Shown: in pieces, positions 4,159 to 34,430 of the stretch
Numbering within the stretch: position 1 is the first letter of the stretch
How the letters are laid out: each line of letters begins with the position of its first letter
DNA from: Vampirovibrionia bacterium
Lineage (GTDB): Bacteria; Cyanobacteriota; Vampirovibrionia; LMEP-6097
Length of the DNA stretch: 40,738 nucleotides
NCBI GenBank assembly: GCA_049314535.1
Contig: JBMOEX010000002.1
Span: 1 to 40,738, forward strand
Direction: 5' to 3'
The notes under the pieces: model-generated
Database searches by the model: none
Told to the model about the DNA's origin: nothing
What the model saw: the letters and a program-made list of their open reading frames with translations, nothing else
Position numbers and translations under genes: made by a program

Positions 4159-5037
4159 ATGAGCAGATCGCCTGTCAAAATCGCAATAACCTGTGACACC
4201 CAAAGATTGGGTTGTAAATTATTAGTTAATTTACTTAAAATTAATGGTGCAGAGCCAGTCGTTATACCAACGCTACTAGAAGCTGAAGATGGCTTTTTTA
4301 AATTCAATACGCCATGTGAAGAGCTTAAAAAAAGACATTTAGAAAAAGTCGCCGAGCTAATGAAAAACGTAGACGCTCTTATACTTCCAGGTAATAAATA
4401 TGACCTTCACCCTAGTTACTACAAAGATGATTCTCTGCACCCTAAAACCTTACTCTGTGACAATCCTTGTAATCTCAGATTTGATTCTGAATTTATCATG
4501 GCTCGCTATGCACTTTTCGAAAGACCCATGCCAATACTCGCCATATGCGGTGGAATGCAATTACTTAATGTTATTCTTGGCGGGTCTTTAGTTCAAGATT
4601 TAACAGATGACCGTCGCACTCAAGAATCTGGCACTCAACACTGTGACCCAAATTTCATTCACAAGCCCGATATAATTCAAGAGACCCTGAAAGAAAGATT
4701 TTTTAGAATGCTTGAGAATGGCGAAAACGCAAATATCTTTGATGCTACTCATGGTATGGAAATAGTCAGAGACTCTGAACTAGCTAGGCTTTATAGAAAA
4801 TACGCGCCAGAACTTGATCTTTCAGATATAGATGAACTAAGTATCCATCACCAAGGTCTGTTTAAAGAGAATCTCAGTAAAGAATTAAAAGCCGTAGCTT
4901 ATGCACCAGATGGATTAATAGAAGCAGCAGAAATGCCATCTCACCCTAATTTCAATATCCTCACGCAATTTCATGTGGAATATAATGTAAGCAGACTTGC
5001 TAATCCTATCGTGCAAGAGTTAATTAAATCTGTTTAA
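4159..5037 (+). CDS. class I glutamine amidotransferase-like, peptidase C26 / gamma-glutamyl-GABA hydrolase family
   Basis: Nucleophile-elbow motif ILAICGGMQLLNVILGGSLVQDL and a downstream HHQ, as in PuuD-type proteins. Confidence 0.7.
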   Translation: MSRSPVKIAITCDTQRLGCKLLVNLLKINGAEPVVIPTLLEAEDGFFKFNTPCEELKKRHLEKVAELMKNVDALILPGNKYDLHPSYYKDDSLHPKTLLCDNPCNLRFDSEFIMARYALFERPMPILAICGGMQLLNVILGGSLVQDLTDDRRTQESGTQHCDPNFIHKPDIIQETLKERFFRMLENGENANIFDATHGMEIVRDSELARLYRKYAPELDLSDIDELSIHHQGLFKENLSKELKAVAYAPDGLIEAAEMPSHPNFNILTQFHVEYNVSRLANPIVQELIKSV

Positions 5038-5040
5038 ATT

Positions 5041-7950
5041 ATGGCTTATTTCAATTCTTCTCAAATTTACATCTCTCAAATGCTGAGCGAGATCGGAGTC
5101 TCATCCATAGATGATCTATTCAGAGATATTCCAGCAGAACTTCTCTTAAAGCATGATCTGAAATTAGATTCAGCATTAGCGGAATGGGAAGTGAAAGAGT
5201 ATTTTCACAAACTGAGTTTAAAGAATAATTACAGAACTAATAATTTCAAAGGAGCTGGAGCTTACCAGCATTATGTTCCAGCTTTAGTAAGACATCTCAG
5301 TTCTAGAGGTGAATTCTTAACATCCTATACACCATACCAACCAGAAGTCAGTCAGGGAACGCTTAGAGCTATTTATATGTTTCAATCTTTCATGGCTGAT
5401 ATCTGTGGCATGGATTTAGCTAATGCTTCCATGTATGATGGAGCAACAGCTCTAGCAGAGTCTCTCTGCATGGCTCATCGCATCCATAAAAAAAGGAAAA
5501 TTTACTTATCTAAATCTACCCATCCTGAATATATAGAAGTAGCAGAAAATTACCTAGAAGCTTTAGGCTTAGAAATTATTTTTTTTGAAGATTTAAGTCA
5601 AGTAGATAATTCTTCGATAGTCAGTATCTCTAATCCAAATTTCTACGGTGAATTACTGAGTCACAGCGAAAGACTCAGACTAAGTGAAGAAATAAAGAGC
5701 AGAGATTTATTCTTAATCGTCTCCACCAGTGAGCCTTTCGCTCTATTCATGGATAAAAAGCTAAAAGATTTAGGTGCAGAAATAGTCTGCGGTTCAGCAC
5801 AGTCCTTTGGCAATCCAGTATTTTACGGTGGAGCTCAAGTCGGGTTTATTTCAAGCAAGTTAGAACACGTTAGACAAATGCCAGGTAGGCTGGTAGGCAA
5901 GACTACAGATCGCAAAGGCAATACTGGCTATGCTTTAACCTTCCAAGCAAGAGAACAGCACATTAAAAGAGATAGGGCTAGCTCTAATATCTGCACTAAT
6001 CAATCCATCCATGCTCTCTGTGTAGCTATCTATTTAAGTATGCTGGGGATATCTGGAGTAGAAAAAATAATTCAAGACTGTTATTTAAAATCTCAGCTCA
6101 TAAAAAACACACTTGAAAAATTCCCTGAGATTAAAGTGTTTTCAGAAAATACTTTTAATGAATTTATGCTACAAGCTAATTTTAATGCTGTAGAAAAGAG
6201 ATTAGGCTTAGAAGCAGCAAATCAGCTCCAGGAATACTTAAATAGCTACTTAGTTAGTTTAAGTAAATTTAAGACACTAACTGGTCGCAACTTAATTCCT
6301 GAAAGGCTTTTAAAAAATTTTAAACAAAGTGAAATTACTAAGCCGTGCGAAGATCTAAGTAACAGTTATTTACTTGCCATAACGGAAATTAATTCGATAG
6401 AACACCTAAAAATATTTATTAGAGGTTTAAATCAAATACTCGCGAGCTCAATCGAGATCAGCTTTTCAGAAGAATTATATATTAAGGAAGCAAGCGATAC
6501 GCATTATCAGTATTCAGAAAATGGAATAACAGAAACTGTAAAATATTTACCAAAAATCGACCCTAAAAACTACAAATTCGAATCTAAGACCGAGCTAGAT
6601 GTCTGTAGATATTTCACAAGACTCTCTCAGAAGAATTTCTCCATAGACACTAATTTCTATCCACTCGGTTCTTGTACTATGAAGTACAACCCTAAAGTTA
6701 ATGATGATATAGCGAGTCAGGCTTCTTGGACTGGGGTTCATCCTTATGAAGATGAAAAAAATATTCAGGGCGTACTAAAAGTTTATGAAGAACTAAATCA
6801 ATCACTCTGTGAAATCACTGGCTTTGATAGTTTCAGCTTACAGTCAGCAGCTGGAGCTCAAGGAGAGTTTTCTGCACTATTAATGGCAAAAAAATATTTT
6901 AACGATAAAGGAACTCCAGAAAGAAACATAGTCCTAGTACCAGATTCAGCTCATGGTACTAATCCTGCTAGTGCTGTTATGGCTGGCTTTAAAGTGATTT
7001 CAGTAAGGTCAGCAGCAGATGGTGACGTCAATTTAGAACATTTAAATGAACTCTGCACCATTCATTCTAAAAGCATCGGAGTCTTTATGTTAACCAATCC
7101 TAATACCCTAGGGATTTTCAGTAAACGCATTCAAATCATTACTAAAACAATTCACGAGCATGGTGGAATAATGTACTATGATGGAGCCAATCTTAATGCC
7201 ATAGTCGGCACAAGTCGCCCTGGTGATATGGGCTTCGATTTAATACATCTAAATGTTCATAAAACATTCTCAACTCCACATGGAGGTGGTGGTCCGGGAG
7301 CTGGTCCTGTGGGCGCTAAAGGTGAACTCGTGAAATATTTACCAAGTCCTTATTTAGTTAAAGATACTGGTGGTAATTTAAAATGGGATAAAACGAAAAA
7401 TGAATCCATCGGCAGAATCAGATCTTTTCACGGAAATTTTAATGTACTAATTCGTGCACTTACCTATATCAAATCCAATGGCAAAGAAGGTATCTCTCAA
7501 ATCGGTCAGATAGCGACTCTTAACGCTAATTATCTACAAGAGAAAATTAGAAAAAGTCCTATACTCTCTGAAGAAGGTCTTTTCAGCCCTTACTTCAATG
7601 AAGTCTGCAAACATGAATTTATTATTAGTGCAAGTAAACTTAAAGAAAAATATGGCATTAGTGCTTTAGATATAGCTAAAAACCTTTTAGATAAAGGCAT
7701 TCATGCTCCCACTATCTACTTCCCCACCAACATTAACGAATGTATCATGATAGAACCTACTGAAACTGAGTCTAGAGAAAGTTTAGATGCGTTAGTTTTA
7801 GCACTAGAAGAAATTATTACTTTAGCGAAGACCGAGTCTGGCAGAGAGCTGATTAAAACGGCACCACATACTACAGAATTTTCACGCTTCGATGAAGTGA
7901 AGGCTGTTAAGGAGCCTGTTTTGAGCTGGATGATGGAAGCTTTAAAGTAA
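5041..7950 (+). CDS. gcvP: glycine dehydrogenase (decarboxylating), single polypeptide (GcvPA-like half plus GcvPB-like half)
   Basis: The N-terminal half has YTPYQPEVSQGTL and NASMYDGATA. The C-terminal half has FYPLGSCTMKYNP, SLQSAAGAQGE and NVHKTFSTPHGGGGPG, which contains the PLP lysine motif. Confidence 0.9.
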   Translation: MAYFNSSQIYISQMLSEIGVSSIDDLFRDIPAELLLKHDLKLDSALAEWEVKEYFHKLSLKNNYRTNNFKGAGAYQHYVPALVRHLSSRGEFLTSYTPYQPEVSQGTLRAIYMFQSFMADICGMDLANASMYDGATALAESLCMAHRIHKKRKIYLSKSTHPEYIEVAENYLEALGLEIIFFEDLSQVDNSSIVSISNPNFYGELLSHSERLRLSEEIKSRDLFLIVSTSEPFALFMDKKLKDLGAEIVCGSAQSFGNPVFYGGAQVGFISSKLEHVRQMPGRLVGKTTDRKGNTGYALTFQAREQHIKRDRASSNICTNQSIHALCVAIYLSMLGISGVEKIIQDCYLKSQLIKNTLEKFPEIKVFSENTFNEFMLQANFNAVEKRLGLEAANQLQEYLNSYLVSLSKFKTLTGRNLIPERLLKNFKQSEITKPCEDLSNSYLLAITEINSIEHLKIFIRGLNQILASSIEISFSEELYIKEASDTHYQYSENGITETVKYLPKIDPKNYKFESKTELDVCRYFTRLSQKNFSIDTNFYPLGSCTMKYNPKVNDDIASQASWTGVHPYEDEKNIQGVLKVYEELNQSLCEITGFDSFSLQSAAGAQGEFSALLMAKKYFNDKGTPERNIVLVPDSAHGTNPASAVMAGFKVISVRSAADGDVNLEHLNELCTIHSKSIGVFMLTNPNTLGIFSKRIQIITKTIHEHGGIMYYDGANLNAIVGTSRPGDMGFDLIHLNVHKTFSTPHGGGGPGAGPVGAKGELVKYLPSPYLVKDTGGNLKWDKTKNESIGRIRSFHGNFNVLIRALTYIKSNGKEGISQIGQIATLNANYLQEKIRKSPILSEEGLFSPYFNEVCKHEFIISASKLKEKYGISALDIAKNLLDKGIHAPTIYFPTNINECIMIEPTETESRESLDALVLALEEIITLAKTESGRELIKTAPHTTEFSRFDEVKAVKEPVLSWMMEALK

Positions 7951-7986
7951 ACGAATCTGCACTTTTCTTTGGCGCATATCTTATTT

Positions 7987-8820
7987 TTAATCAAAGAACT
8001 TGAAGTTGCTGAGGTGGTTGATGGTCTCACGGAAGTTGAGTTTCTCTTTAGTCAATGGAGTATTGTTAACCGATTGTTCTTTATTTAAGTCTGCCCTCCA
8101 AGCCTGAGCACTTTTTAAGTATATATCAACGTTATGTTGGTTGAGTCGAGCTAACTCTCGATCACCCAATCTCTGAACTAATAATGGGTCTGCTGCACGT
8201 CCATGATGAAATGAATCACCTTCATAACCAGGCTCTAATTTAAATTGTCGAACGAGAGAATAATTAACTTTAGCTGATGCACCTAGTGGAACTCCTTGCG
8301 CAACACTTTTTAAAACTCGTATTAAGTTATCGCATTGAGCAGTCTCTCCCTGAGTAGCTAATCGTTCAAGAACTTTCTTAGCACCAGTAGCAATTATTCC
8401 CAATCTTATTTCTTCTGTCAATCGTGCATACGGCTGTTTATCTGTAGAGTTGGTTCCTGTCAAATGCAATTTACTTAATTGATCAAACAAAGAATGAATA
8501 TCATCTATTCCATTGTTACGACAAGTGTCTTTAATTTGCTCTACAGTAGCTAGAAAGTTCTCCTGGCCTACAGGATTAGAGGAATTTTCACTTAAAATAG
8601 TTTGAAGTGTTTTATCATGGTAAGGATTTATTACTATCTCAGCTTGGCTGTTTTCACGGGGAGTGGAAATGGCTTTAACCATTGTCCTACTAGCTTCTAC
8701 TGTCGTCTTCTCAAAAGTTTTTAATGCTTCAAGTGGAGTCCTTAGAGTTTCCAAAAATTCTTGTACATCAAATGATTGCATTGAATTACTTGGGCCTGAT
8801 GAATTAATAGTGCTTGACAT
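7987..8820 (-). CDS. hypothetical protein
   Basis: A 277-aa ORF with no signal peptide and no recognised motif. Confidence 0.5.
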   Translation of the reverse strand: MSSTINSSGPSNSMQSFDVQEFLETLRTPLEALKTFEKTTVEASRTMVKAISTPRENSQAEIVINPYHDKTLQTILSENSSNPVGQENFLATVEQIKDTCRNNGIDDIHSLFDQLSKLHLTGTNSTDKQPYARLTEEIRLGIIATGAKKVLERLATQGETAQCDNLIRVLKSVAQGVPLGASAKVNYSLVRQFKLEPGYEGDSFHHGRAADPLLVQRLGDRELARLNQHNVDIYLKSAQAWRADLNKEQSVNNTPLTKEKLNFRETINHLSNFKFFD

Positions 8821-8892
8821 GATGCCTTTTATCTTAAATCATCATGTCTTATTTTGACAAGTTGTATTTTAAAAATTAATCAACAGGATTTC

Positions 8893-9960
8893 TCACTTCG
8901 CACCAAAACTAGTAGCTAGTCCCATAAATAACCTGAAATCATAACCAGCCTGCTCTCCCTCATAGACCTCAACTACAGGGAATCCTGCACTGATGTTATA
9001 AACCACCCTGTCATTTAAAGTCATTCTCACTCCAGGACTTAAAAATACTGTGACCCCACCATGATTAGGAACCCTACGATTATCTATCTCAGGCACACCC
9101 TGAGCTAAAGTATTTACCTCGAAAATTAAATCCCAAGCTATATGCTGCCCTAAGATATGCTCTGGCAAAAACTTTTCAAAGATATTACATTTATGTTCTT
9201 CATGATCATGACTGTGCTGAAAAGGGTCTTTATGCGTATGATGCACTGGATAACTAACTGCCACATTATAAGTAGCCACATCACCCACATCAGTAGAGGC
9301 TTTCCCCTCGTTACTTAACTTATAAAGAAAATTAGCATCTAAATTTACTTTATTAGAAAAAGTCTTAGAAACAGCTAAACCGAACATCGGATCAGTAGAT
9401 CCAGAACTCGGCTGATTTACAGTCTCGAAAGTCTCTCCATTATCAGCTTTCACTGAACTATTACCTGTAGGCAGTTTCACACCAGCTAAAAAAGCTGACT
9501 GAAATTTATGTTTCTCTGAGTTTAAGAACCTATACTGACTAAGTAGAGTAAGTCCACCAAAGCCAATCGAATTACCAAGCTGCTCCAATTCACCATCATG
9601 CAGTTCACGAAAGGCAAAACCATTACTAAAAGGCATACTAGCAGAGATGCTCAAATCATCAGTAATACCATAAGCCATATTTAAACTAGAAGTGAGATTA
9701 GAATTTAAATCGTCAGCGTGTTGTTTTTTACTAATTAAACTGGTGATCTGAGACTGAGAGAATCTCCCAGAATTTAAATAACTCGCCCCCGCACTAACGC
9801 TAAGCACGCCTTTAGGCAGAGTATATGCTGGTAATGTGATGATAGGGCCAGCAAGACCACCAGCTTGGATACCAGCTGAACAGCCACAAGCACCACCGTG
9901 AGCGGAAACTGAATTAAAAGTTAATACTAAAGCTAATAAAAAGTAAAAATATAAAAACAT
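8893..9960 (-). CDS. putative outer-membrane beta-barrel protein with a His-rich loop
   Basis: N-terminal signal peptide (FLLALVLTFNSVSAHG) and alternating amphipathic beta-strand-like segments throughout. It carries the loop HHTHKDPFQHSHDHEEHK. Family assignment is uncertain; it is reminiscent of MetA-pathway-type OM transporters. Confidence 0.5.
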   Translation of the reverse strand: MFLYFYFLLALVLTFNSVSAHGGACGCSAGIQAGGLAGPIITLPAYTLPKGVLSVSAGASYLNSGRFSQSQITSLISKKQHADDLNSNLTSSLNMAYGITDDLSISASMPFSNGFAFRELHDGELEQLGNSIGFGGLTLLSQYRFLNSEKHKFQSAFLAGVKLPTGNSSVKADNGETFETVNQPSSGSTDPMFGLAVSKTFSNKVNLDANFLYKLSNEGKASTDVGDVATYNVAVSYPVHHTHKDPFQHSHDHEEHKCNIFEKFLPEHILGQHIAWDLIFEVNTLAQGVPEIDNRRVPNHGGVTVFLSPGVRMTLNDRVVYNISAGFPVVEVYEGEQAGYDFRLFMGLATSFGAK

Positions 9961-10077
9961 GCAAAAGACTATTCTAATACTAAAATAAAACAGAAGGGGG
10001 AAAATCGATAATCGAAGATAGTACTCATTTTAAAAAAGCCGCAGGACGCCTGTCAGAGAATATTTTAGAATAAAAAT

Positions 10078-11514
10078 TTAATTAAGCCCTGCACCAAAAA
10101 CCGAAATCTTAGTGTTTAAAAGCTTCTTTATAACTTCATCCTTCAAATCCTCACCAATAAAGCCTTCCGCCTCTAAATCTTTTATCATCTTTAAAAATTT
10201 CTTACTGGTTTTTTTAGTAAGACTACTATCTATCAGAGTATTTTTTATCATCTCGATAGAACCTAGATCTATCGAATTAATTCCAGGTACAGCAGTACGA
10301 GTAACACTCAGCTTCTGCTTTTCACATATTTCTCTTAAAAATTTTACTTCAAGAGGAGTTACCACTGAAAAAGCATAACCCGACTTACCAGCTCTAGCAG
10401 TCCTACCAATACGATGCACATAATCCTCAGAATCCCGTGGCAGATTATAGTTTATAACAGCTTCTATATCATCTACATCTATACCTCGTGCTGCTATATC
10501 AGTAGCGATAAGAATCTGAGCCTCACCTTCTCTAAATTTACGCATTACAGCATCACGTTTATTCTGCTTTAAGTCACCATGTAAATTCGCTACACTGAAG
10601 CCCTCATCTTTAAGCGTATAGTAAAGTTTATCTACTTGCACCCTAGTATTACAAAAAATCATCACAGAACGCAGTCTGTATGAGAATAGTAAACGCTTAA
10701 TCAGTTCTATCTTTTGCTCAGCCTTAGTCTCGAAATATTTCTGATCTATTTTAATCTCTGTGACCTTCTTCTTAACTAAATTTAAAAATTCAGGTTTTTT
10801 CTGATGCTTATGAGCAAGCCTAACTATCTCCTGTGGCATAGTCGCAGAGAAGAGAGCTGTCTGTTCACGATTCTTAGTCGCATGTAAAATCGCTTCGATA
10901 TCATCTTTAAAACCCATTTCCAGCATCTTATCTGCTTCATCTAGAATCAAGGTTCTAACTGCTCTTAACTTTACAGTTCCTTGCTTAATATGATCTAATA
11001 GACGCCCAGGTGTAGCTACGATAATACGTGGCTGAGTTTTTAAAGTCTTAAGCTGTGCGTTCATACTCTGACCACCATATATAGCCATGCAAGAAACATC
11101 TTCACGGGACTGCTTGCAACCTTCAATTTCTGCGTTTTCGTCGTCCTCATGATCCTCATGTACCTTCAGTACACTGCGGTCATTCGTCCTTCTCAGCCTT
11201 GAACTTGTAAGTTTGCGAGCAGTCCTATGATATTTAAGCAGTAAATTAAAATGCTCGGCTACTTGAATAGTAAGCTCACGGGTAGGACATAGTACTAAAG
11301 CTTGAATATCTACTGTCTCTTTAATTATTCTCTCTATAACAGGTATCGCAAAAGCGGCTGTCTTACCAGTTCCAGTCTCAGCTTGAACTGTAATATCCTT
11401 CATTTTAAGCATTAATGGAATAGCTTTCTCTTGAACTGGTGTCATAGACTGGAACCCCATATCCCTTAATCCATTTAATGTAAGCTCAGAAAGATTTATT
11501 GCCTTGAAGTTCAT
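10078..11514 (-). CDS. DEAD-box ATP-dependent RNA helicase carrying an in-frame repeat-element insert
   Basis: Q-motif region, AETGTGKT (motif I), PTRELT (Ia), TPGRL (Ib), DEAD (II), SAT (III) and HRIGRTARAG (VI). About 40 extra residues lie between Ia and the GG doublet and are encoded by the repeat at 11107-11225. Confidence 0.9.
   Translation of the reverse strand: MNFKAINLSELTLNGLRDMGFQSMTPVQEKAIPLMLKMKDITVQAETGTGKTAAFAIPVIERIIKETVDIQALVLCPTRELTIQVAEHFNLLLKYHRTARKLTSSRLRRTNDRSVLKVHEDHEDDENAEIEGCKQSREDVSCMAIYGGQSMNAQLKTLKTQPRIIVATPGRLLDHIKQGTVKLRAVRTLILDEADKMLEMGFKDDIEAILHATKNREQTALFSATMPQEIVRLAHKHQKKPEFLNLVKKKVTEIKIDQKYFETKAEQKIELIKRLLFSYRLRSVMIFCNTRVQVDKLYYTLKDEGFSVANLHGDLKQNKRDAVMRKFREGEAQILIATDIAARGIDVDDIEAVINYNLPRDSEDYVHRIGRTARAGKSGYAFSVVTPLEVKFLREICEKQKLSVTRTAVPGINSIDLGSIEMIKNTLIDSSLTKKTSKKFLKMIKDLEAEGFIGEDLKDEVIKKLLNTKISVFGAGLN
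11107..11225 (-). repeat. full L+R palindromic repeat element (short form), in-frame inside the helicase CDS
   Basis: The core differs from the ribH copy at about 3-4 of about 87 positions by hand alignment. Arms are GGACTGCTTGCAA / TTTGCGAGCAGTCC. It encodes TARKLTSSRLRRTNDRSVLKVHEDHEDDENAEIEGCKQS. Confidence 0.85.
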
Positions 11515-11589
11515 TTAAACTATCATAGCTTGTTCTTTGCTTGGAGAAAAATAGAGCCCTGCTGTATCTCTATGTTAAAATCCTAAATG

Positions 11590-11680
11590 TTACTGGGGTG
11601 TTGAGAAATAACTTGACTGAGATCGTAGTAGGCTACGGGACCCTTATAACCTGATCTGGATAATGCCAGCGGAGGGAAAA
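11590..11680 (+). ncRNA. TPP (THI-box) riboswitch
   Basis: ACTGGGGTG...GACTGAGATCG...ACCCTTATAACCTGATCTGGATAATGCCAGCGGAGGGAA carries the conserved CUGAGA and ACCUGAUCUGGAUAAUGCCAGCG cores. It ends at the GGAGGG Shine-Dalgarno, 7 nt before the ATG at 11683. Confidence 0.85.
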
Positions 11681-11682
11681 TA

Positions 11683-12051
11683 ATGCTTGGACGAATTCTT
11701 AGTTTCTTGTCGCCGACTGTAAACTCGGCTCAACTTAATAAATTTGATGATCAACATGTTAATGCTGATATATGCTTGACTCCTATGGGTTCTTCGAATA
11801 CTTCAACTAGAGCCGAGATAAGAAAAGCTGTGGAAATAATGTCAAGAGCTGGTTTTGATGAAGTCAAACCACATGCTTTTGGAACTAATGTTTCAGGAAA
11901 ATGGTCTACTTTAGTAAGGTCTATAGAAAAAATTTCAGAGCAACTACTCCCTGAATGCCAAAGGCTACATTTTGATCTTAGAATTTCAGTAAGAGAGGAT
12001 AAACCTAAACATAGACAGACTATTGGACATACGATAGCAGCTGTGGCGTAA
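11683..12051 (+). CDS. YkoF/MTH1187-family (thiamine-binding, DUF77-like) protein
   Basis: It sits immediately downstream of the TPP riboswitch. The small protein has an ICLTPMG...AVEIMSRAGF...HAFGTNVSGKW pattern, like the V-x-P-x-G...G-T-x-x-E-G layout of the family. The assignment is partly by context. Confidence 0.55.
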   Translation: MLGRILSFLSPTVNSAQLNKFDDQHVNADICLTPMGSSNTSTRAEIRKAVEIMSRAGFDEVKPHAFGTNVSGKWSTLVRSIEKISEQLLPECQRLHFDLRISVREDKPKHRQTIGHTIAAVA

Positions 12052-12101
12052 CAGTCATTCATCCTCCTCAGCCTTGAACTTGCACCCTCGGCAACAGTGC
12101 C
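12052..12101 (-). repeat. solo R module of the repeat family, intergenic, starting 1 nt after the ykoF-like stop codon
   Basis: ACAGTCATTCATCCTCCTCAGCCTTGAACTTGCACCCTCGGCAACAGTGCC compared with canonical GCGGTCATTCGTCCTCCTCAGCCTTGAACTTGCACGTTCGCAAGCAGTGCC. Confidence 0.8.
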
Positions 12102-12142
12102 TTGAACAGTAGTTTCCAAGAAAGTAATATAATAAAGGCTGA

Positions 12143-12817
12143 ATGCTAAATTTAAAAAATAAATTAATCTATATCTTAGCTTTTAGCCTTTTTCTAGCTC
12201 TAAACACTACAGCAGCAGAGACTGTCACAGAGAAACTTTCAGCCACAGCCTCAAAAACCATTGATATCGCAGCAGAGCAGAAAAGAATACAGAATATGTT
12301 TAATGCTTTTATAACGACTATCGGTAAGTCACCTAAAGACTACACTATAGAAGTAGTCGAATCAAAAGATATAAATGCTTTCGCCACTTTAGGACGGCGC
12401 ATAGTGGTTAATACTGAATTAATTAAAACTGTAAATAGTGAATCAGCTTTAGCTATGGTTCTTGCCCATGAATTAGGTCACCTCGAAAGAAAACATTTAG
12501 TAAAAAGCCTTATAAGCCAGAACACTTCAGCCTTAATCAAGCACTATGTCTTTAAAGATAATCGTATCGTGAGTGCGATAAGCTATGCTGGTGGTCTGCA
12601 TTACAGCAGGGAGACAGAAAAAGACGCAGATATGTTCGGCATAAACTTAGTAAACAAGCTCTACTGTAATGTTCCAGGTAAGTTAGAGTTTTTTGAAAAG
12701 ATGTCTAAATTAGAGAATGCTGGGAAACTGCAAGAGTACTTTAGTACGCATCCGCTTTCTAGCAGTCGTATGGAATATCTTACTGCTGAGATTAAGGCTA
12801 AGGGGTGTCTTCTATAA
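12143..12817 (+). CDS. M48-family zinc metallopeptidase (exported)
   Basis: Signal-like N-terminus. HELGHLERKH is an HExxH motif, and a downstream EKDAD fits the third ligand region. Confidence 0.75.
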   Translation: MLNLKNKLIYILAFSLFLALNTTAAETVTEKLSATASKTIDIAAEQKRIQNMFNAFITTIGKSPKDYTIEVVESKDINAFATLGRRIVVNTELIKTVNSESALAMVLAHELGHLERKHLVKSLISQNTSALIKHYVFKDNRIVSAISYAGGLHYSRETEKDADMFGINLVNKLYCNVPGKLEFFEKMSKLENAGKLQEYFSTHPLSSSRMEYLTAEIKAKGCLL

Positions 12818-13462
12818 CCCCAAAACCTGCAAACAAGACAAAGCAAGCTCTTTACCCTTATCATCCTGAGTAACACTCGCTCTTGATAAAGCCTGCTCTT
12901 CAGTATTTACTGTAAGAACCCCATTAATAATCGGTTTCGAGTAATCTAACATCACGTCCATAATGCCTCTTGCTGACTCATTCGCCACTATCTCAAAATG
13001 ATAAGTTTCACCACGAATAATAGTTGCAAAGCAAATTATTGCATGATAACCAGTAAAACTATCATGAGACTGTTTCCAAACTACAATTTCTGCGTTTTCG
13101 TCGTCCTCATGATCCTCATGTACCTTCAGTACACTGCGGTCATTCGTCCTCCTCAGCCTTGAACTTGCACGCTTGGAAACAGTCTCATCATCTATATCAA
13201 GAATCTCATCCTCTAAATCCTTCTCAAAGAGCTTCTGGCAGGCATAAGGCATCTCAAAAGCACCAGGAGTGTAATAACTATCTATATTTTCAGCTCTAAT
13301 ACCAAATTTAATTAAAGTCTCTTTAGCTGAATCTGCCATTTCCTGGTTATAGCCTATATTCCAGTTAGCGATAACTAGAGCTATCCTGATATTCTCAAGA
13401 TAAAGGTTTTCAAGTATTTCTTCTAATTTAAATTCTGGTCTTGAGTGTCGCATATGATGCAT
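12812..13462 (-). CDS. ribH: 6,7-dimethyl-8-ribityllumazine synthase carrying an in-frame repeat-element insert
   Basis: IALVIANWN, PGAFEMPYA, IIRGETYHFEIVANE and NGVLTV match RibH. At 216 aa it is longer than the usual 155 or so, and the excess maps to the repeat at 13064-13188. Confidence 0.85.
   Translation of the reverse strand: MHHMRHSRPEFKLEEILENLYLENIRIALVIANWNIGYNQEMADSAKETLIKFGIRAENIDSYYTPGAFEMPYACQKLFEKDLEDEILDIDDETVSKRASSRLRRTNDRSVLKVHEDHEDDENAEIVVWKQSHDSFTGYHAIICFATIIRGETYHFEIVANESARGIMDVMLDYSKPIINGVLTVNTEEQALSRASVTQDDKGKELALSCLQVLGL
13064..13188 (-). repeat. full L+R palindromic repeat element (short form), in-frame inside ribH
   Basis: Perfect 16-nt inverted arms ATGAGACTGTTTCCAA / TTGGAAACAGTCTCAT flank the conserved core. 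It encodes ETVSKRASSRLRRTNDRSVLKVHEDHEDDENAEIVVWKQSH. Confidence 0.9.
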
Positions 13463-20391: not shown

Positions 20392-20409
20392 TCAAGACCG
20401 ATGCACAAC
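20392..20409 (-). repeat. short dispersed motif (copy 2 of 3), 23 nt upstream of the atpG start codon
   Basis: TCAAGACCGATGCACAAC on the plus strand, which is GTTGTGCATCGGTCTTGA in the sense of the minus-strand genes. Confidence 0.5.
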
Positions 20410-20473
20410 TCCATGTTCTCTTCAACATTAAAACCGCAAACTCAAGATTAAGTCTCCATAAACTAAAATTAAG

Positions 20474-21394
20474 CTATGCTAACGCCCTTGATAAATAATT
20501 TTGATTAATCTTTAATAAATCAGTAGCAGACTCAAAATCTAATCCTTTCTTAAGATAAAGAACAGCCTGTTTAACTCTATTATTAGATAAAGCTAAAGCC
20601 TGCTCAGCTAAAGGCTTATCACAGTCCGTAATTAAGCTTACTAATCTAATAGCTCTCTCCTTGAGCTTTTTATTACTCACCTTAACATCTATCATTAGGT
20701 TACCAAAGGTTTTACCTAACTTAACCATAACTGAAGTACTTATAATATTAAGTACCATCTTCTGCGAGGTTCCAGCTTTAAGCCTAGTACTACCTGAAAG
20801 TATCTCAGGACCAGTATCTAAAAAAATAGAATAATCCGCATATTTAATAATCTCAGCTCCATGATTATTGGTCAGTACCGCTGTCTTAGCACCATATTCT
20901 CTCGCTGCTTTTAAAGCTCCTATAACATAAGCTGCTCCACCGCTAGCCGAAATACCGATAACCACATCATGGCACTGCTCACGAACTCCAATTTCTGCGT
21001 TTTCGCTACTCTTTAAATTCATCTTCGCTAAAACATCAGCATAACCAGCAGCTTCATCATCTTCGGCTCCTTCTACTGCATACTGGATGGCTCTTTCACC
21101 ACCAGCGATAATAGCTTTCACTAAATCTGGCTCAGTAGAAAAAGTAGGCGGACATTCTACTGCATCTAAAACACCAAGACGCCCACTAGTACCAGCTCCC
21201 ACATAAATCAATGATCCACCCTGTCTTAAAGATTCACTAACAACTTCGATGACCATTCCGATATCTTCTTTAACATCAGCAATGGCTTTTAAAATCTGTT
21301 GGTGATCATCCACAAAGAGCTGAACTAAATCAGAGGAGTTTAACTGATCTAAATTTTCAGAAAGTGGGTTTACCGATTCTGTTATGGGCAGCAT
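20474..21394 (-). CDS. murQ: N-acetylmuramic acid 6-phosphate etherase carrying a partial repeat insert
   Basis: SIS-domain motifs YVGAGTSGRLGVLDA, ECPPTF, VIGISASG and LSGSTRLKAGTSQK. About 12 extra residues (ENAEIGVREQCH) lie directly before DVVIGISASG. Confidence 0.85.
   Translation of the reverse strand: MLPITESVNPLSENLDQLNSSDLVQLFVDDHQQILKAIADVKEDIGMVIEVVSESLRQGGSLIYVGAGTSGRLGVLDAVECPPTFSTEPDLVKAIIAGGERAIQYAVEGAEDDEAAGYADVLAKMNLKSSENAEIGVREQCHDVVIGISASGGAAYVIGALKAAREYGAKTAVLTNNHGAEIIKYADYSIFLDTGPEILSGSTRLKAGTSQKMVLNIISTSVMVKLGKTFGNLMIDVKVSNKKLKERAIRLVSLITDCDKPLAEQALALSNNRVKQAVLYLKKGLDFESATDLLKINQNYLSRALA
20971..21005 (-). repeat. truncated L module of the repeat family, in-frame inside murQ
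   Basis: GGCACTGCTCACGAACTCCAATTTCTGCGTTTTCG matches the first 35 nt of the L module in the ABC ATPase gene with 1 mismatch. Confidence 0.8.
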
Positions 21395-22608
21395 TATTTA
21401 CACTCTCCTTGATACAGCAGACAAGACACCTTATGGCACTGCTCGCGAACTCCAATTTCTGCGTTTTCGTCGTCCTCATGATCCTCATGTAAGCTTGATA
21501 AATCAAGCTTGTATTTCTGCTTGCTCGGATATGAGCCACTTACATGGCTCGCATCCTCGGCATCGCTAGAAATTACCCGTACACTGCGGTCATTCGTCCT
21601 CCTCAGCCTTGAACTTGCACGTTCGCAAGCAGTGCCATTTTGGGGCTGCTCACGAGCTTCAATTTCTGCGTTTTCGTCGTCCTCATGATCCTCTAAAAGT
21701 GGATCATTGATCTCACAAGCCTCAAAGCATTCAGGACATCTAGTGCGGAAAGCACAACCACTCGGTATTTTAGTTGCACTGGGTATTTCACCATACAAAA
21801 AAGTACGCTCCCTATCACGCTTAGTCGGGTCTGGGAGTGGGGCTGAGCTTAAAAGAGCTTTAGTGTAAGGATGCAAAGGATTACGAAAGAGATCATCTTT
21901 AGCTGCTATTTCAACTATTTTTCCTAGATACATAACAGCTACTCTATCTGCGATAAACTTAGCCACGGCTAAATCATGAGTAATAAAAAGAAAACTAATA
22001 CCCAGCTCCCGCTTAAGCTTCAGCATTAAATTCAATATAGTCCACTGAATCGATACATCTAAAGCACTCACAGCTTCATCTGCAATAATCAATTTAGGAT
22101 TACAAGCTATCGCTCTAGCTATACAGACTCGCTGATTTTGTCCACCTGAACACTGATGTGGATATTTAGAAGCAAGCTCAGCATCAAGTTCAACAAGCTG
22201 CATAAGCTCAAATACTCTTTCTTTAATATTCTTTTCTTTATTTATTCTCAAGGGTTCAGCAATAGAATCAAAAATTTTAAAGCGAGGATCTAAGCTACTA
22301 AAAGGATTCTGGAAAATCATCTGTAAACTTTTTCTTTTATCTAAAAGCTTAGATCCATGAAGATGTAAAAAATCTTCACCTTCAAAATTAATCTCACCAG
22401 AGTCTGGCTCAGTGAGACGAGTTATAAGTCTTGCTAAAGTGGATTTACCGCAGCCAGATTCGCCTACCAAAACTAATATCTCAGCTTTATCAATAGATAA
22501 ATCCACTCCCCTCACGACTTGAAGAAGCTCTTTAGTCGCTAAGCCCCATCCCCCATCTTTTGAGATAGAAAAAGATTTAGATAAATTTTTAACCTCTAAT
22601 AAAGCCAC
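21394..22608 (-). CDS. ABC transporter ATP-binding protein, oligopeptide/dipeptide (OppF/DppF) type, with a composite repeat insert of about 85 aa near the C-terminus
   Basis: Walker A GESGCGKST, signature SGGQNQR, Walker B IIADEA, and the Opp-type C-terminal Cys motif CAFRTRCPECFEAC. The family-typical end H-x-V-x-C (HKVSCLLY) reappears after the insert. GTG start. The stop codon overlaps the murQ ATG (TAATG). Confidence 0.85.
   Translation of the reverse strand: MALLEVKNLSKSFSISKDGGWGLATKELLQVVRGVDLSIDKAEILVLVGESGCGKSTLARLITRLTEPDSGEINFEGEDFLHLHGSKLLDKRKSLQMIFQNPFSSLDPRFKIFDSIAEPLRINKEKNIKERVFELMQLVELDAELASKYPHQCSGGQNQRVCIARAIACNPKLIIADEAVSALDVSIQWTILNLMLKLKRELGISFLFITHDLAVAKFIADRVAVMYLGKIVEIAAKDDLFRNPLHPYTKALLSSAPLPDPTKRDRERTFLYGEIPSATKIPSGCAFRTRCPECFEACEINDPLLEDHEDDENAEIEAREQPQNGTACERASSRLRRTNDRSVRVISSDAEDASHVSGSYPSKQKYKLDLSSLHEDHEDDENAEIGVREQCHKVSCLLYQGECK
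21435..21636 (-). repeat. full L+R repeat element, long form (88-nt internal segment replaces the 7-nt joint)
   Basis: Arms GGCACTGCTCGCGAAC / GTTCGCAAGCAGTGCC (15/16). The ACTG...CAGT anchor span is 196 nt, against 115 nt in both short copies, a difference of 81 nt or 27 codons. Confidence 0.85.
21642..21693 (-). repeat. solo L module, 5 nt from the long element, in-frame in the same CDS
   Basis: GGGGCTGCTCACGAGCTTCAATTTCTGCGTTTTCGTCGTCCTCATGATCCTC. It encodes DHEDDENAEIEAREQP. Confidence 0.85.
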
Positions 22609-22628: not shown

Positions 22629-22646
22629 TCAAGACCGCTGCACAAC
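22629..22646 (-). repeat. short dispersed motif (copy 3 of 3), 20 nt upstream of the ABC ATPase start codon
   Basis: TCAAGACCGCTGCACAAC on the plus strand. Confidence 0.5.
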
Positions 22647-22715
22647 GTGCGTTTTCAAGACTAGGAAGAACGATCAAAAATTAGAAGAAAGTTTTTTACA
22701 GATTAAAATGGTATT

Positions 22716-30436: not shown

Positions 30437-30481
30437 GGGACACGACGAAAACGCAGAAATTCGAGCTTGTGAGCAGTCCCC
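30437..30481 (+). repeat. solo L module of the repeat family in inverted orientation, filling the gap between two convergent stop codons
   Basis: The reverse complement GGGGACTGCTCACAAGCTCGAATTTCTGCGTTTTCGTCGT matches the L module. The flanks GCTTAAGGGGAC / GTCCCCTAAGC are complementary (one bulge) and include both stop codons. Confidence 0.8.
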
Positions 30482-31697: not shown

Positions 31698-34430
31698 TCA
31701 CGCTCTATTCGCGTACGTCTCTAAGGTCTTGTTTAGAAAATCGCGTATTGTTTGATTATTAGCAGCCTGCAGCGCAGTGCCAAAATAAGAACTCCCCTGG
31801 TTCACAAATTCTACAACTTTATCAGATGGAAGATTCTCAATTATCAGCTCTACGGCTCTAATATTATCGTTATTAGCAGCTTGCATAAGCAGCGTAGAAT
31901 TATTTACAAATGTCCCTGTCAAAGCTTTTACTAATTCATTAGGTAACAGATTCTTAATTATCAGCTCCAGTACTTCGGTATGACCTTTCTGAATATCATA
32001 GATCAGCGCCGTATAACCAAGATCATTCTTCTCAGTCAAAGCGTTTACTAATTTATCGGCTGGAAGATTTTTAATTATCTGCTTTATTACTCCTCCCCTA
32101 GCAGCAATCATCAGCACCGTATCATTATGACGAAGACTATTCTTCTCAGTCACAAGCTCTACTACTTGAGCTGCTGGAAGATTTTTAATTAGCTGATCCA
32201 TTAATTCAGTAATACTTTTTCTAGCAGCAATCATGAGTACAGTATAACCATCAACATCCTTCTCCTTCAAAAATTCTACTAATTTACTGGGTGGAAGCTT
32301 TTCAATTAGCGGCTTTATGAATCCACTATAATTTTTCTGAACAAGAATATATAAGAGGTCACTGAGATAATTCCTATTCTTAGCCAAAACTTCTACTAAT
32401 TTATCAGGTGAAAGATCAATTAGCTGCTTTATTACTTTAAAATGACTTTTGTTATAAGCAATGTTCGGGACGGTAGAATGATAAATACTCTTCTCTGTAA
32501 AAGCTTCTACTAATTTATCAGGTGGAAGATTCTCAATTAGCTGATCCATTAATTCAATATGACCTTCGCTAAGAGCAAAGATGAAGATATTTTCACCTTC
32601 TGGTCTCATCCTTAAATTAGATTTATCTCCATCTCTATCTCTAAAGATTTGAGCCTCCAAGCGACTGAGGCTAGACTTTAACTCACTTTCTTTATATGCA
32701 TCTCCAAATATCTGAGTGAGATCTTTTTCGCGGTCTCGTGTTTTTAGTATTTTTTCTATTCTTGGATCTCCATTTCGACCAAAGTTCTTAATTCCTTTCA
32801 CAATTTCATAGATAAAGAATAAATCGTCCTCTGTAAAGTCTATATTCTTTTGAAATTTACCATAGAGTCTCTCTAGAGCCTTAGTATCTTTATCTGCTCT
32901 TAGCCATTTTTCAAGATTCGGGAATACAGGCTTACCATCTGCATCTCTGCTTTGAAGTTTTTCTTGTAAAATACTGATCCCATTATCGCCTGTAGCATTA
33001 GCAATAAATCCATCTAGATTTTGCCTTGCAGCGATACCACGAATTTCTGATATTTCATCACCATTCATCGCAATAGCTAATCTTGGTAAGACAGGGTTTT
33101 TATTTTTATCTTGAGAGAAGTAAATATAGATATCACCTTGTTTTAAATAACGATCTGCAGTGTCTAAACCCTGCAAGCACCATCCAGTATCCCAATACTT
33201 AATACTATCCCTAAGTTCCTTTGGTTCACTGTCTTTAGGAAACTTTCGCCATTCTCCATCAGTAGTACTTAAATCTATCTTGCTTGTTGTTTGATTCTGC
33301 AAGAATTTATACAGACTACTAAAATGCAGCGTGACAGTACCATTACCTTTAGTAATGTCAATATTATCTTTTAAAAACTTATACAGATTAGGATTTTCTT
33401 GCTCATATTTTTTTTGAATTTCACCCATGATTTTGGTATGAGAATGAATTTCACAGAGTTTTACGATATCATTAATTTCGCCGACTAGAGCTGGATTAAG
33501 GACTGGGAAATCTTTAATTGAATTTGGTGATGATCTATTTTGAAAATTAACTTTAGTGTTTCTTGGATCATTTAATATTAGTGAATAGAGAATAACTTTA
33601 TCTAATTGACCATCAGAGAAGAGCATATTGAGCTTATCTTTAAAGTCATCATCTAGCTCAGGGTTCCTTTGAGTAGTTTGGATAATTTCAGCTTTAATTT
33701 CATCTGGAGCTATCTCACTACGAGCATGTCTACTGATAATGTCTTGAAATTTTTCAAAAGAAGCTGTATCTATATCGGTGTGTGATGCTAGAGAATCTGG
33801 TTTTTCTAATATTCCTTCAAGAACAGATAAGTTCGGCTTATTATCTAGTATTCGTACTTCTAGATCAGCTACTGCATTAAATATCCAGTGTCTCGTCTTA
33901 TTATTTAAGTAAGTAACCCCACCATCTGGATCGTTTAAATAATTAAACCAGTCTGTTAACGAAGCTCTTAGATCAGCTTTTTTATTTTCAAACACTTTTA
34001 GCCTGTCTAGAGTGGCTCCTGGATTGATGTCTCGAGCCAGTTCTTGAAGATGATTAAAATCTGAATCTGTGAGTTCTTGTGGTAAAAAACGCTCTATATA
34101 CTCTATCTTCTTCTCTGCTGAAGAATCTGTAAAGAATTCAGGAGCCTTAGCCAGAATGAATTCTTGAGCTAATTCTAATTTTTTAGAATATTTCGCATTA
34201 GTGATTAAAGATATCCAATCAACAGTGCTTCCATTATTAGTAAAGTCCTTTTCCTCTTCATTTTCTACTATGAGGCGAGTCAAATAGCCTAAAAGTGAAC
34301 TAGAGTCAGGCTGAGATTCAGCAGGGGTGCTAATTTGCTGTACTAGGGCAGTAGCTAAACCTTTGACTCGTGTTTGAATAGGCCTCGGTAATTGAAGCTG
34401 TAAGGTCGAAGGCTTATCTTGAATGACCAC
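31698..34430 (-). CDS. large repeat protein: unknown N-terminal region plus about 8 C-terminal ankyrin-like repeats of about 37 aa
   Basis: 910 aa with a GTG start. The C-terminal third repeats the pattern G-x-T-x-LM-x-AA...(I/L)I(K/E)NLP-x-DKLVE-x-L-x-EKN. The central motif WDTGWCLQGL...GDIYIYFS...EISEIRGIAARQN is unassigned. Confidence 0.65.
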   Translation of the reverse strand: MVIQDKPSTLQLQLPRPIQTRVKGLATALVQQISTPAESQPDSSSLLGYLTRLIVENEEEKDFTNNGSTVDWISLITNAKYSKKLELAQEFILAKAPEFFTDSSAEKKIEYIERFLPQELTDSDFNHLQELARDINPGATLDRLKVFENKKADLRASLTDWFNYLNDPDGGVTYLNNKTRHWIFNAVADLEVRILDNKPNLSVLEGILEKPDSLASHTDIDTASFEKFQDIISRHARSEIAPDEIKAEIIQTTQRNPELDDDFKDKLNMLFSDGQLDKVILYSLILNDPRNTKVNFQNRSSPNSIKDFPVLNPALVGEINDIVKLCEIHSHTKIMGEIQKKYEQENPNLYKFLKDNIDITKGNGTVTLHFSSLYKFLQNQTTSKIDLSTTDGEWRKFPKDSEPKELRDSIKYWDTGWCLQGLDTADRYLKQGDIYIYFSQDKNKNPVLPRLAIAMNGDEISEIRGIAARQNLDGFIANATGDNGISILQEKLQSRDADGKPVFPNLEKWLRADKDTKALERLYGKFQKNIDFTEDDLFFIYEIVKGIKNFGRNGDPRIEKILKTRDREKDLTQIFGDAYKESELKSSLSRLEAQIFRDRDGDKSNLRMRPEGENIFIFALSEGHIELMDQLIENLPPDKLVEAFTEKSIYHSTVPNIAYNKSHFKVIKQLIDLSPDKLVEVLAKNRNYLSDLLYILVQKNYSGFIKPLIEKLPPSKLVEFLKEKDVDGYTVLMIAARKSITELMDQLIKNLPAAQVVELVTEKNSLRHNDTVLMIAARGGVIKQIIKNLPADKLVNALTEKNDLGYTALIYDIQKGHTEVLELIIKNLLPNELVKALTGTFVNNSTLLMQAANNDNIRAVELIIENLPSDKVVEFVNQGSSYFGTALQAANNQTIRDFLNKTLETYANRA
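31718..32590 (-). repeat. intragenic tandem coding repeats (period about 110 nt)
   Basis: For example, GGTGGAAGATTCTCAATTAGCTGATCCATTAATTCA at 32521 and GCTGGAAGATTTTTAATTAGCTGATCCATTAATTCA at 32171. NLP-x-DKLVE units recur about 8 times in the protein. Confidence 0.6.

Follow-up and report, generated by a model that had tools for sequence, protein, structure and literature searches.

A family of 121-bp non-autonomous transposons with covarying termini and a conserved core in Caenarcaniphilales/Melainabacteria

The window analyzed here is a 40,738-nt stretch of contig JBMOEX010000002.1 (positions 1 to 40,738, forward strand) from the Vampirovibrionia bacterium assembly GCA_049314535.1. It contains a gene for 6,7-dimethyl-8-ribityllumazine (DMRL) synthase, ribH (open reading frame [ORF] 12812-13462, minus strand), whose Pfam domain is divided into two stretches by a repeat that reads GAGACTG...CAGTCTC and has ATCAT on either side. 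The repeat measures 121 bp, with 16-bp terminal inverted repeats, here referred to as arms, and also exists as a long variant of about 189-202 bp. Within the window, it recurs in a DEAD-box helicase gene and, as a long variant whose central hairpin loop is replaced by 81 extra nt, in the gene of an oligopeptide-type ABC ATPase, and several fragments are present as well (Table 1). The repeat is a family of non-autonomous DNA transposons (MITEs, or miniature inverted-repeat transposable elements) of Caenarcaniphilales/Melainabacteria and represents a new family within the known MITE class, not a new kind of element.

An initial annotation of the window had described arms that covary between copies around an invariant interior. 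The arms of the helicase and ABC copies are present as quoted there, and those given for the ribH copy, ATGAGACTGTTTCCAA and TTGGAAACAGTCTCAT, pair at 16 of 16 positions; their outer AT, however, belongs to the ATCAT duplication, and the element proper spans 13066-13186. Some details concerning the ABC copy had to be revised: its interior is not about 87 nt, as the copy measures 202 nt with the extra sequence in its middle, and the extra G reported in both of its arms is an alignment artefact: when aligned without gaps, both arms carry G for A at position 13, a matched substitution. The annotation had also called the repeat the reverse of a classical MITE, whereas 16-bp inverted ends, a 5-bp duplication, empty sites and about four end types make it classical in every other respect.

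Copies, empty sites and reading frame

Copies were retrieved by scanning a genome collection with a 20-mer from the left core of the element, which matched more than 103 stretches, and by running nhmmer over 731 kb of related loci and the window. The nhmmer search returned 280 matches, about 90 of them full length and 190 partial; distinct insertion sites of full copies number 79, and copies and fragments together come to more than 230. Contig L074, which is 88-93% identical to window positions 4616-13065, has neither the helicase nor the ribH copy, and its empty ribH site reads ...AAAACTATCAT directly followed by CATCTATT.... At the helicase site, the duplication is past recognition and the net gain over the empty site is 123 nt. 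Among 86 full copies, direct repeats of 5 nt abut the arms perfectly in 22 cases and with at most one mismatch in 43; mismatches average 1.80, compared with 3.21 after permutation, and the signal is absent for lengths of 2-4 and 6-9 nt. The duplications differ in sequence (AACAG, TAATT, AGAGG, ATAAC and others), and the targets are A/T-rich pentanucleotides with the consensus A-T-C/T-A/T-T. Thus, small size, terminal inverted repeats, a fixed 5-bp duplication and dispersed copies with presence/absence variation, all features of MITEs, are found together, and the element itself holds only read-through frames, with no Pfam match in the insert. The long variants of 189-202 bp have perfect 5-bp duplications, and therefore this form is mobile too. 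Elsewhere they lie at L041 7283-7471, L071 6414-6615, L096 5131-5320 and L081 4713-4912; in the long variant of the window, the extra module at 21491-21578 is structured and has its own hairpins, in which compensatory variation is seen.

Since element and duplication together add 121 + 5 = 126 bp, or 42 codons, the downstream reading frame is always kept. Frame 0 is the only stop-free frame on either strand; of 79 copies, it is open in 58 for the plus strand and in 68 for the minus strand. Every in-gene copy of the window is read in frame, with the antisense read-through peptide ...SSRLRRTNDRSVLKVHEDHEDDENAEI..., and this antisense peptide is strongly hydrophilic (grand average of hydropathy, GRAVY, of -1.34 versus -0.43 for the sense peptide). 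When open stretches of at least 600 nt are counted as long, 38 of the 90 full copies sit within genes in antisense frame 0 and a single one in sense, while the other 51 are intergenic or in shorter open stretches. The settings vary, with copies found within enzymes, after tRNA genes and between genes, and the Pfam domains of the host genes are divided in two by the insert. On the gene-sense strand, at about element positions 75-95 (for example window 13140-13160, minus strand), GAGGAGG is followed 4 nt on by ATG; this resembles a ribosome-binding site and start codon but is out of frame and opens an ORF of only 5 codons.

The initial annotation had also considered ends derived from the target. 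One could, in addition, regard the repeat as a protein-coding domain repeat rather than as mobile DNA, given that its peptide is in frame in several proteins and that some loci carry tandem arrays with a period of 123-128 nt. Both of these ideas are scarcely credible in light of the data. Empty sites are without the whole element, arms included, and the mutual information between arm and flank is at chance level, which excludes target-derived ends. For a domain repeat, the 51 full copies outside long open stretches, a core that is conserved at all codon positions and the 5-bp duplications would all be out of place.

Covariation of the terminal arms

The 76 ungapped copies have 67 arm haplotypes, which fall into four main types with the left arms GGGACTGCTCGCAAAC (type I), GGCACTGTTGCCGAAC (type II), GGGCGTGTAGCGAAAC (type III) and GAGACCGCTGCACAAC (type IV). 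Only G1, G7 and AAC14-16 are near constant, and the other 11 of the 16 arm positions vary. In an alignment of 75 copies, each of the 16 arm pairs has changed on both sides and 91.3% of the cells are paired. The covariation score for these copies is 0.274, compared with 0.097 after shuffling (reached in 0 of 500 shuffles) and at most 0.077 when the pairing partners are slid. Likewise, the 86 full copies have a mean of 2.19 arm mismatches out of 16, while permuting the right arms gives 5.92, with 5.14 as the lowest of 2000 permutations. The covariation proposed initially is thus confirmed by permutation and shuffling. A spanning tree of the haplotypes contains 32 compensated double changes, with 3.3 expected if left and right arms were independent, next to 120 single-sided changes.

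It could be argued that these are ordinary subfamilies, in which each arm type binds its own transposase variant and a shared core results from recombination. In 73 of 79 copies, both arms belong to the same type, and the types coexist, types I-III being present in all five of the metagenome-assembled genomes (MAGs) that carry the element and type IV in three. They also differ in apparent age: perfect duplications flank 13 of 24 type III copies, 6 of 29 of type II, 3 of 24 of type I and 0 of 9 of type IV, so that by duplication integrity type III is the youngest, and where copies are stacked (see below) the newest element is always of type III. A further observation that would fit such subfamilies is a 107-bp element at L001 3652-3758, which has type IV arms (GAGACCGCTGCACAAT ... 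GTTTTGCAGCAGTCTC) and TTATT / ATATT flanks but an unrelated core. This element is single-copy in the window and the related loci and may be a sign that other cargo, too, can be carried between such arms. However, covariation persists inside every type: permuting the right arms within types raises the mismatches from 1.70 to 2.65 (0 of 5000 permutations reach the observed value), and the four types contain 46 matched departures in 27 distinct states, many of them seen once or twice, which exceeds what a handful of transposases would account for. For this reason, the arm pattern is more than four fixed subfamilies. The variability of 11 arm positions, a duplication length and target preference common to all four types, and the fact that no transposase gene was seen in the window and the 731 kb of related loci likewise speak against type-specific transposases, and we consider this explanation rather unlikely. 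The initial annotation had named lineage subfamilies with fixed terminal repeats as a finding that would overturn its reading; the number of haplotypes and the surplus of compensated doubles in the tree are not what such subfamilies would produce.

Mismatches within the arms are informative as to how the covariation arose. In type III, one and the same mismatch, G.G at arm position 12, recurs at 12 distinct sites, each with its own duplication, and in type I a G.T mismatch at position 11 recurs at 7 sites. The recurrence of identical mismatches indicates that both ends are copied faithfully and inherited, not regenerated, contrary to the suggestion that propagation itself restores paired ends. 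Furthermore, in five independent orthologous pairs, 8 of 160 arm positions differ and none of these differences is compensated. The inherited mismatches and the uncompensated ortholog differences together place the origin of the covariation at the level of lineages.

These ortholog data also bear on the other suggestion of the initial annotation, that a hairpin is selected at each locus. Under host selection of this kind, the hairpin could serve as a terminator, as a cruciform bound by protein, or as a signal for mRNA stability or translation. Folding of both strands, which had been called for, showed a rod-like fold of the single strand (z-scores between -4 and -7) and that the gene-sense RNA is the more stable, at -49.7 kcal/mol (z = -7.0) versus -33.1 for the other strand. 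Such stability would suit a selected hairpin, as would the better preservation of ortholog cores relative to their flanks, and compensatory changes in the bcr1 element have been read at the RNA level (PMC3184786). Nevertheless, none of the ortholog arm changes is compensated, and neither strand shows a wobble bias: of the non-Watson-Crick cells, 36 are G.T when read on the plus strand, 49 when read on the minus strand, and 57 are of transversion type. In addition, arm mismatches are equal in genes and outside them (2.24 versus 2.16), and copies occur in very different contexts. Locus-by-locus selection by the host therefore seems very unlikely.

Another way to obtain matched arms without selection for pairing is to copy one arm onto the other by mutation, through quasi-palindrome template switching or hairpin mismatch repair, either in place or at a junction of abutted ends, whereby single changes become matched doubles. 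Several observations are in keeping with this. Matched doubles are frequent relative to singles (32 to 120 for the spanning tree, 46 to 106 when counted inside types), and one indel is matched between the two arms (L065). Template switching is expected to be more efficient over short loops, as in quasi-palindrome mutagenesis in E. coli, and the central hairpin of the element, with its short loop, is 99.6% paired, compared with 91.3% for the distant arms. Junctions of a right end, 5 nt and a left end do occur in these genomes. On the other hand, identical mismatches have come through no fewer than 12 and 7 transposition events, respectively, 0 of 8 ortholog arm changes are matched, arm mismatches neither drop nor climb with duplication decay, and the conservation of the core is left unexplained. 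We regard arm-to-arm copying as unlikely, though together with the subfamilies it is the main rival of the model given below. Duplication decay was dropped as a proxy for age, being unrelated to arm mismatches (Spearman -0.15); the duplication mismatches are probably disturbed by stacking and rearrangement.

Core, stacked copies and a model of mobilization

The two arms have nucleotide diversities of 0.365 and 0.340 and the two parts of the core 0.042 and 0.072; the value for the central loop is 0.458. The contrast between arms and core is also present in 18 copies obtained independently of the scan pattern. The statement that the core is nearly invariant thus holds, except that the 5-nt central loop and positions 102-103 vary as much as the arms. 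The stem of the central hairpin covaries as well, with GTAC/GTAC, GCAC/GTGC and GTAT/ATAC as alternatives: pair 56-66 is UA in 62 copies and CG in 13, and pair 58-64 is CG in 66 and UA in 8 with one cell unpaired, so that the double changes occur nearly without intermediates. Between the five orthologous pairs, the core differs at 6 of 380 positions (1.6%) and the flanks at 135 of 1219 (11%), while the 13-nt central hairpin differs at 11 of 65 (17%). Most of these hairpin differences are whole swaps to alleles that are frequent elsewhere; hairpin alleles are common to several arm types, and one of them, GCACACCTAGTGC, has 7 of its 9 occurrences in one genome. The swapping and sharing of hairpin alleles point to patch gene conversion among copies, a process that would act on the interior of the element without extending to its ends.

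Copies are frequently stacked. At 36 of 126 right ends, a left end comes next in direct orientation, and never in inverted orientation; 20 of the 36 junctions have a spacer of exactly 5 nt. Such junctions are found at window 21636-21642 and at L046 2345, L033 2602, L091 1865, L049 1274, L002 4204 and L027 4470. Six junctions combine different arm types, and in these the newer type is always upstream. The downstream, resident copy is usually truncated, often through deletion between short direct repeats, and the orthologous sites L002/L033 and L001/L027 capture stacking in progress. It looks as though the junctions arise from end-targeted insertion, by which a new copy lands exactly beside the left end of one already in place, or, alternatively, represent junctions of abutted ends.

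Taken together, we consider it probable, with considerable reserve, that mobilization reads the conserved subterminal core and needs, or at least favors, pairing of the outer termini. A transposase acting in trans would then read sequence only at G1, G7, AAC14-16 and the subterminal core, while at the remaining approximately 11 outer positions only complementarity between both ends would be required. The ends would meet as base-paired DNA during mobilization, either because the rod-like element folds back on itself over its whole length or in a tight palindrome, in which a right and a left end abut over the 5-nt spacer in a circle or tandem junction. In active lineages, the arm sequence could drift as long as the ends stay matched, and after insertion the arms would decay uncompensated. 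The core may be uniform because it is required in cis and also because it is homogenized in place; the proposed routes for the latter are patch gene conversion among copies and locus turnover, whereby a new copy would land at the left boundary of a resident and the older copy would then be truncated.

A number of points weigh against this model. Transposases known to produce duplications of fixed length work on ends that are double-stranded and are not known to need end-to-end pairing. Lineages with mismatched arms transpose well, type III with its fixed G.G having the most perfect duplications, and hence pairing can be at most a quantitative requirement. A purely mutational copying of arm onto arm predicts much the same pattern. 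The copies share ancestry, so that shuffle tests overstate significance, and retrieval by a 20-mer from the left core inflates both core conservation and the excess of left-end fragments; as the scan pattern sits in the left core, this excess is not claimed as biology. Finally, neither a transposase nor an autonomous partner was detected in the window and the 731 kb of related loci when 14-nt inverted pairs with a 5-bp duplication at a spacing of 60-5000 bp, as well as multi-copy proteins within one genome, were searched for.

A stricter version, in which the outer 13 nt or so of each end are set by structure and not by sequence and movement takes place only when the termini are base-paired, is a tentative proposal that we think unlikely to hold as it stands. 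We know of no description of structure-read ends for duplication-making bacterial transposons; if true, such ends would explain how very short elements bring their ends together. The series of arms, with its 67 haplotypes and inherited mismatches, amounts to a natural mutagenesis experiment that could reveal which end positions are read as sequence and which as structure.

Related elements, distribution and other features of the window

The behavior of the element is most readily likened to that of the RPE of Rickettsia, palindromic dispersed repeats of about 105-150 bp that lie in frame in housekeeping genes (Ogata et al. 2000, summarized in PMC10969869 and PMC3184786). Both are short palindromic repeats found in frame in unrelated genes, with a conserved read-through peptide and no transposase of their own. 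The likeness drawn here is one of behavior. The present element resides in Melainabacteria, a different phylum, and has a strict 5-bp duplication, empty sites, the 126-bp arithmetic and a 38-to-1 orientation bias. We therefore state that it behaves like an RPE without filing it as one. As such, it offers a second, independent and much cleaner case of selfish DNA that lengthens housekeeping proteins, here by 42 residues, in a poorly studied phylum. A second comparison is with bcr1 of the Bacillus cereus group, which is a MITE-like element of approximately 155 bp with 5-bp direct repeats and strain-variable presence, is intergenic and transcribed, and has compensatory changes that keep a folded, cruciform-like structure (Okstad 2004; Klevan 2007; described in PMC3184786). 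By description, the 5-bp repeats, variable presence and compensatory pair changes are shared. The covariation of bcr1, an intergenic element, has been read at the RNA level; in the present family, 38 of 90 full copies are inside genes and the orthologous evidence in situ opposes RNA-level selection.

ERIC and Correia/NEMIS elements of enterobacteria and Neisseria are likewise imperfect palindromes of about 100-160 bp that form long hairpins when transcribed and are occasionally intragenic. Their duplication is the dinucleotide TA, in contrast to 5 bp here, and the end variants of Correia elements mix freely between left and right, while the arm types of our element are concordant in the great majority of copies. 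The stacked junctions recall copy-out-paste-in insertion sequences such as IS3/IS911, IS30, IS21 and IS256, with a right end, a spacer of duplication length and a left end, and with landing beside a resident end. These insertion sequences do insert beside resident inverted repeats but make duplications of 2-4 or 8-9 bp and have other termini (for example TG...CA in IS3). TIMEs, which are derived from Tn3, share the 5-bp duplication, A/T-rich targets and G-rich GGG starts. Tn3-family ends, however, are about 38 bp long, start with GGGG and end with TAAG, and these transposons show target immunity; in our element, inverted symmetry is strong for only 16 nt, the starts are GGG, GGC or GAG, there is no TAAG, and new copies are drawn to resident ends and not excluded from them. 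An assignment to IS200/IS605-type or REP elements, taken as those without target duplication that insert beside a fixed tetra- or pentanucleotide, was rejected on account of the variable 5-bp duplications. The invariant AAC...GTT at the inner arm ends brought integron attC sites to mind, but this was rejected by reasoning, since the stem runs outward, not inward, and the 5-bp duplications vary.

All 20-mer matches bar one are in five MAGs (DUDT01, JBJTTW01, RFQS01, CANHDW01 and JAGWWP01) labelled Melainabacteria, Caenarcaniphilales, Cyanobacteria or, for RFQS01, Proteobacteria. The exception, in Oceanobacillus (L047), arose by chance, and nhmmer detects no element there. The RFQS01 MAG, "Proteobacteria bacterium WB4_1_1465" (for example L013, L048 and L063), carries the element together with insertion sites orthologous to those of Caenarcaniphilales MAGs, as in L063 versus L004, whose flanks are about 94% identical; its Proteobacteria label is probably wrong. 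The element has no match in Rfam 15, be it at the gathering threshold or with E-values as high as 1, nor in plasmids and phages when searched with blastn. An exact look-up of the RibH protein found no match. Searching with the element peptide returned 46 unannotated "hypothetical proteins", all of them small, which belong to this clade or come from metagenomes, and, as its matches were small ORFs only, this search is uninformative on the range of host proteins. In public records, intergenic copies are listed as "hypothetical proteins" of 42-70 residues (P0001-P0046), which are likely spurious gene calls from the open frame of the element. A Logan contig (L104, SRR30676221, 8343 bp) has the radical-SAM gene of the window and stops inside ribH near the insertion, consistent with the element breaking short-read assemblies. 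In practical terms, the element appears to break metagenome assemblies and to add dozens of probably spurious small "hypothetical proteins" to Melainabacteria annotations.

The copies and fragments of the window are listed in Table 1.

Table 1. Copies, fragments and flanking duplications of the element in the window
Feature	Positions	Strand	Remarks
Full 121-bp copy, ribH (DMRL synthase) gene	13066-13186	+	In-frame insertion; ORF 12812-13462, minus strand
Left arm of ribH copy	13066-13081		GAGACTGTTTCCAAAC; 16 nt
Right arm of ribH copy	13171-13186		GCTTGGAAACAGTCTC; 16 nt
Target-site duplication, left ATCAT of ribH copy	13061-13065		5 bp
Target-site duplication, right ATCAT of ribH copy	13187-13191		5 bp
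Full 121-bp copy, DEAD-box helicase gene	11106-11226	+	ORF 10078-11514, minus strand; arms GGGACTGCTTGCAACC / GTTTGCGAGCAGTCCT
Long variant, 202 bp, oligopeptide-type ABC ATPase gene	21435-21636	+	C-terminal part of ORF 21394-22608, minus strand; arms GGCACTGCTCGCGAAC / GTTCGCAAGCAGTGCC
Left-end fragment (arm and left core)	21642-21693	+	5 nt past right end of ABC copy; stacked
Left-end fragment	20971-21005	+	In frame in MurQ-like SIS-domain gene, ORF 20474-21394, minus strand; also a fragment in ortholog L103
Right-end fragment (right core and arm CCTCGGCAACAGTGCC)	12052-12101	+	Directly after small ORF downstream of TPP riboswitch
Internally deleted copy, 44 nt	30437-30480	-	Left end and final 5 nt of right end; intergenic; TTAAG / CTAAG at its flanks
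Short left-end remnant, type IV arm (AAGACCGCTGCGCAAC + CCCATTTTCTGCATT)	512-542	-
Short left-end remnant, type IV arm	20394-20419	+	Intergenic
Right-end remnant, type IV arm	22631-22673	-	Intergenic

The only Rfam match in the window is a thiamine pyrophosphate (TPP) riboswitch outside the element (11584-11696, plus strand; RF00059, 67.9 bits), which lies upstream of the small ORF 11683-12051. A second kind of repeat is found in ORF 31698-34430 (minus strand), where positions 31778-32600 hold at least six tandem coding repeats of 114-117 nt (38-39 residues) with 60-82% identity; this repeat protein is unrelated to the element.

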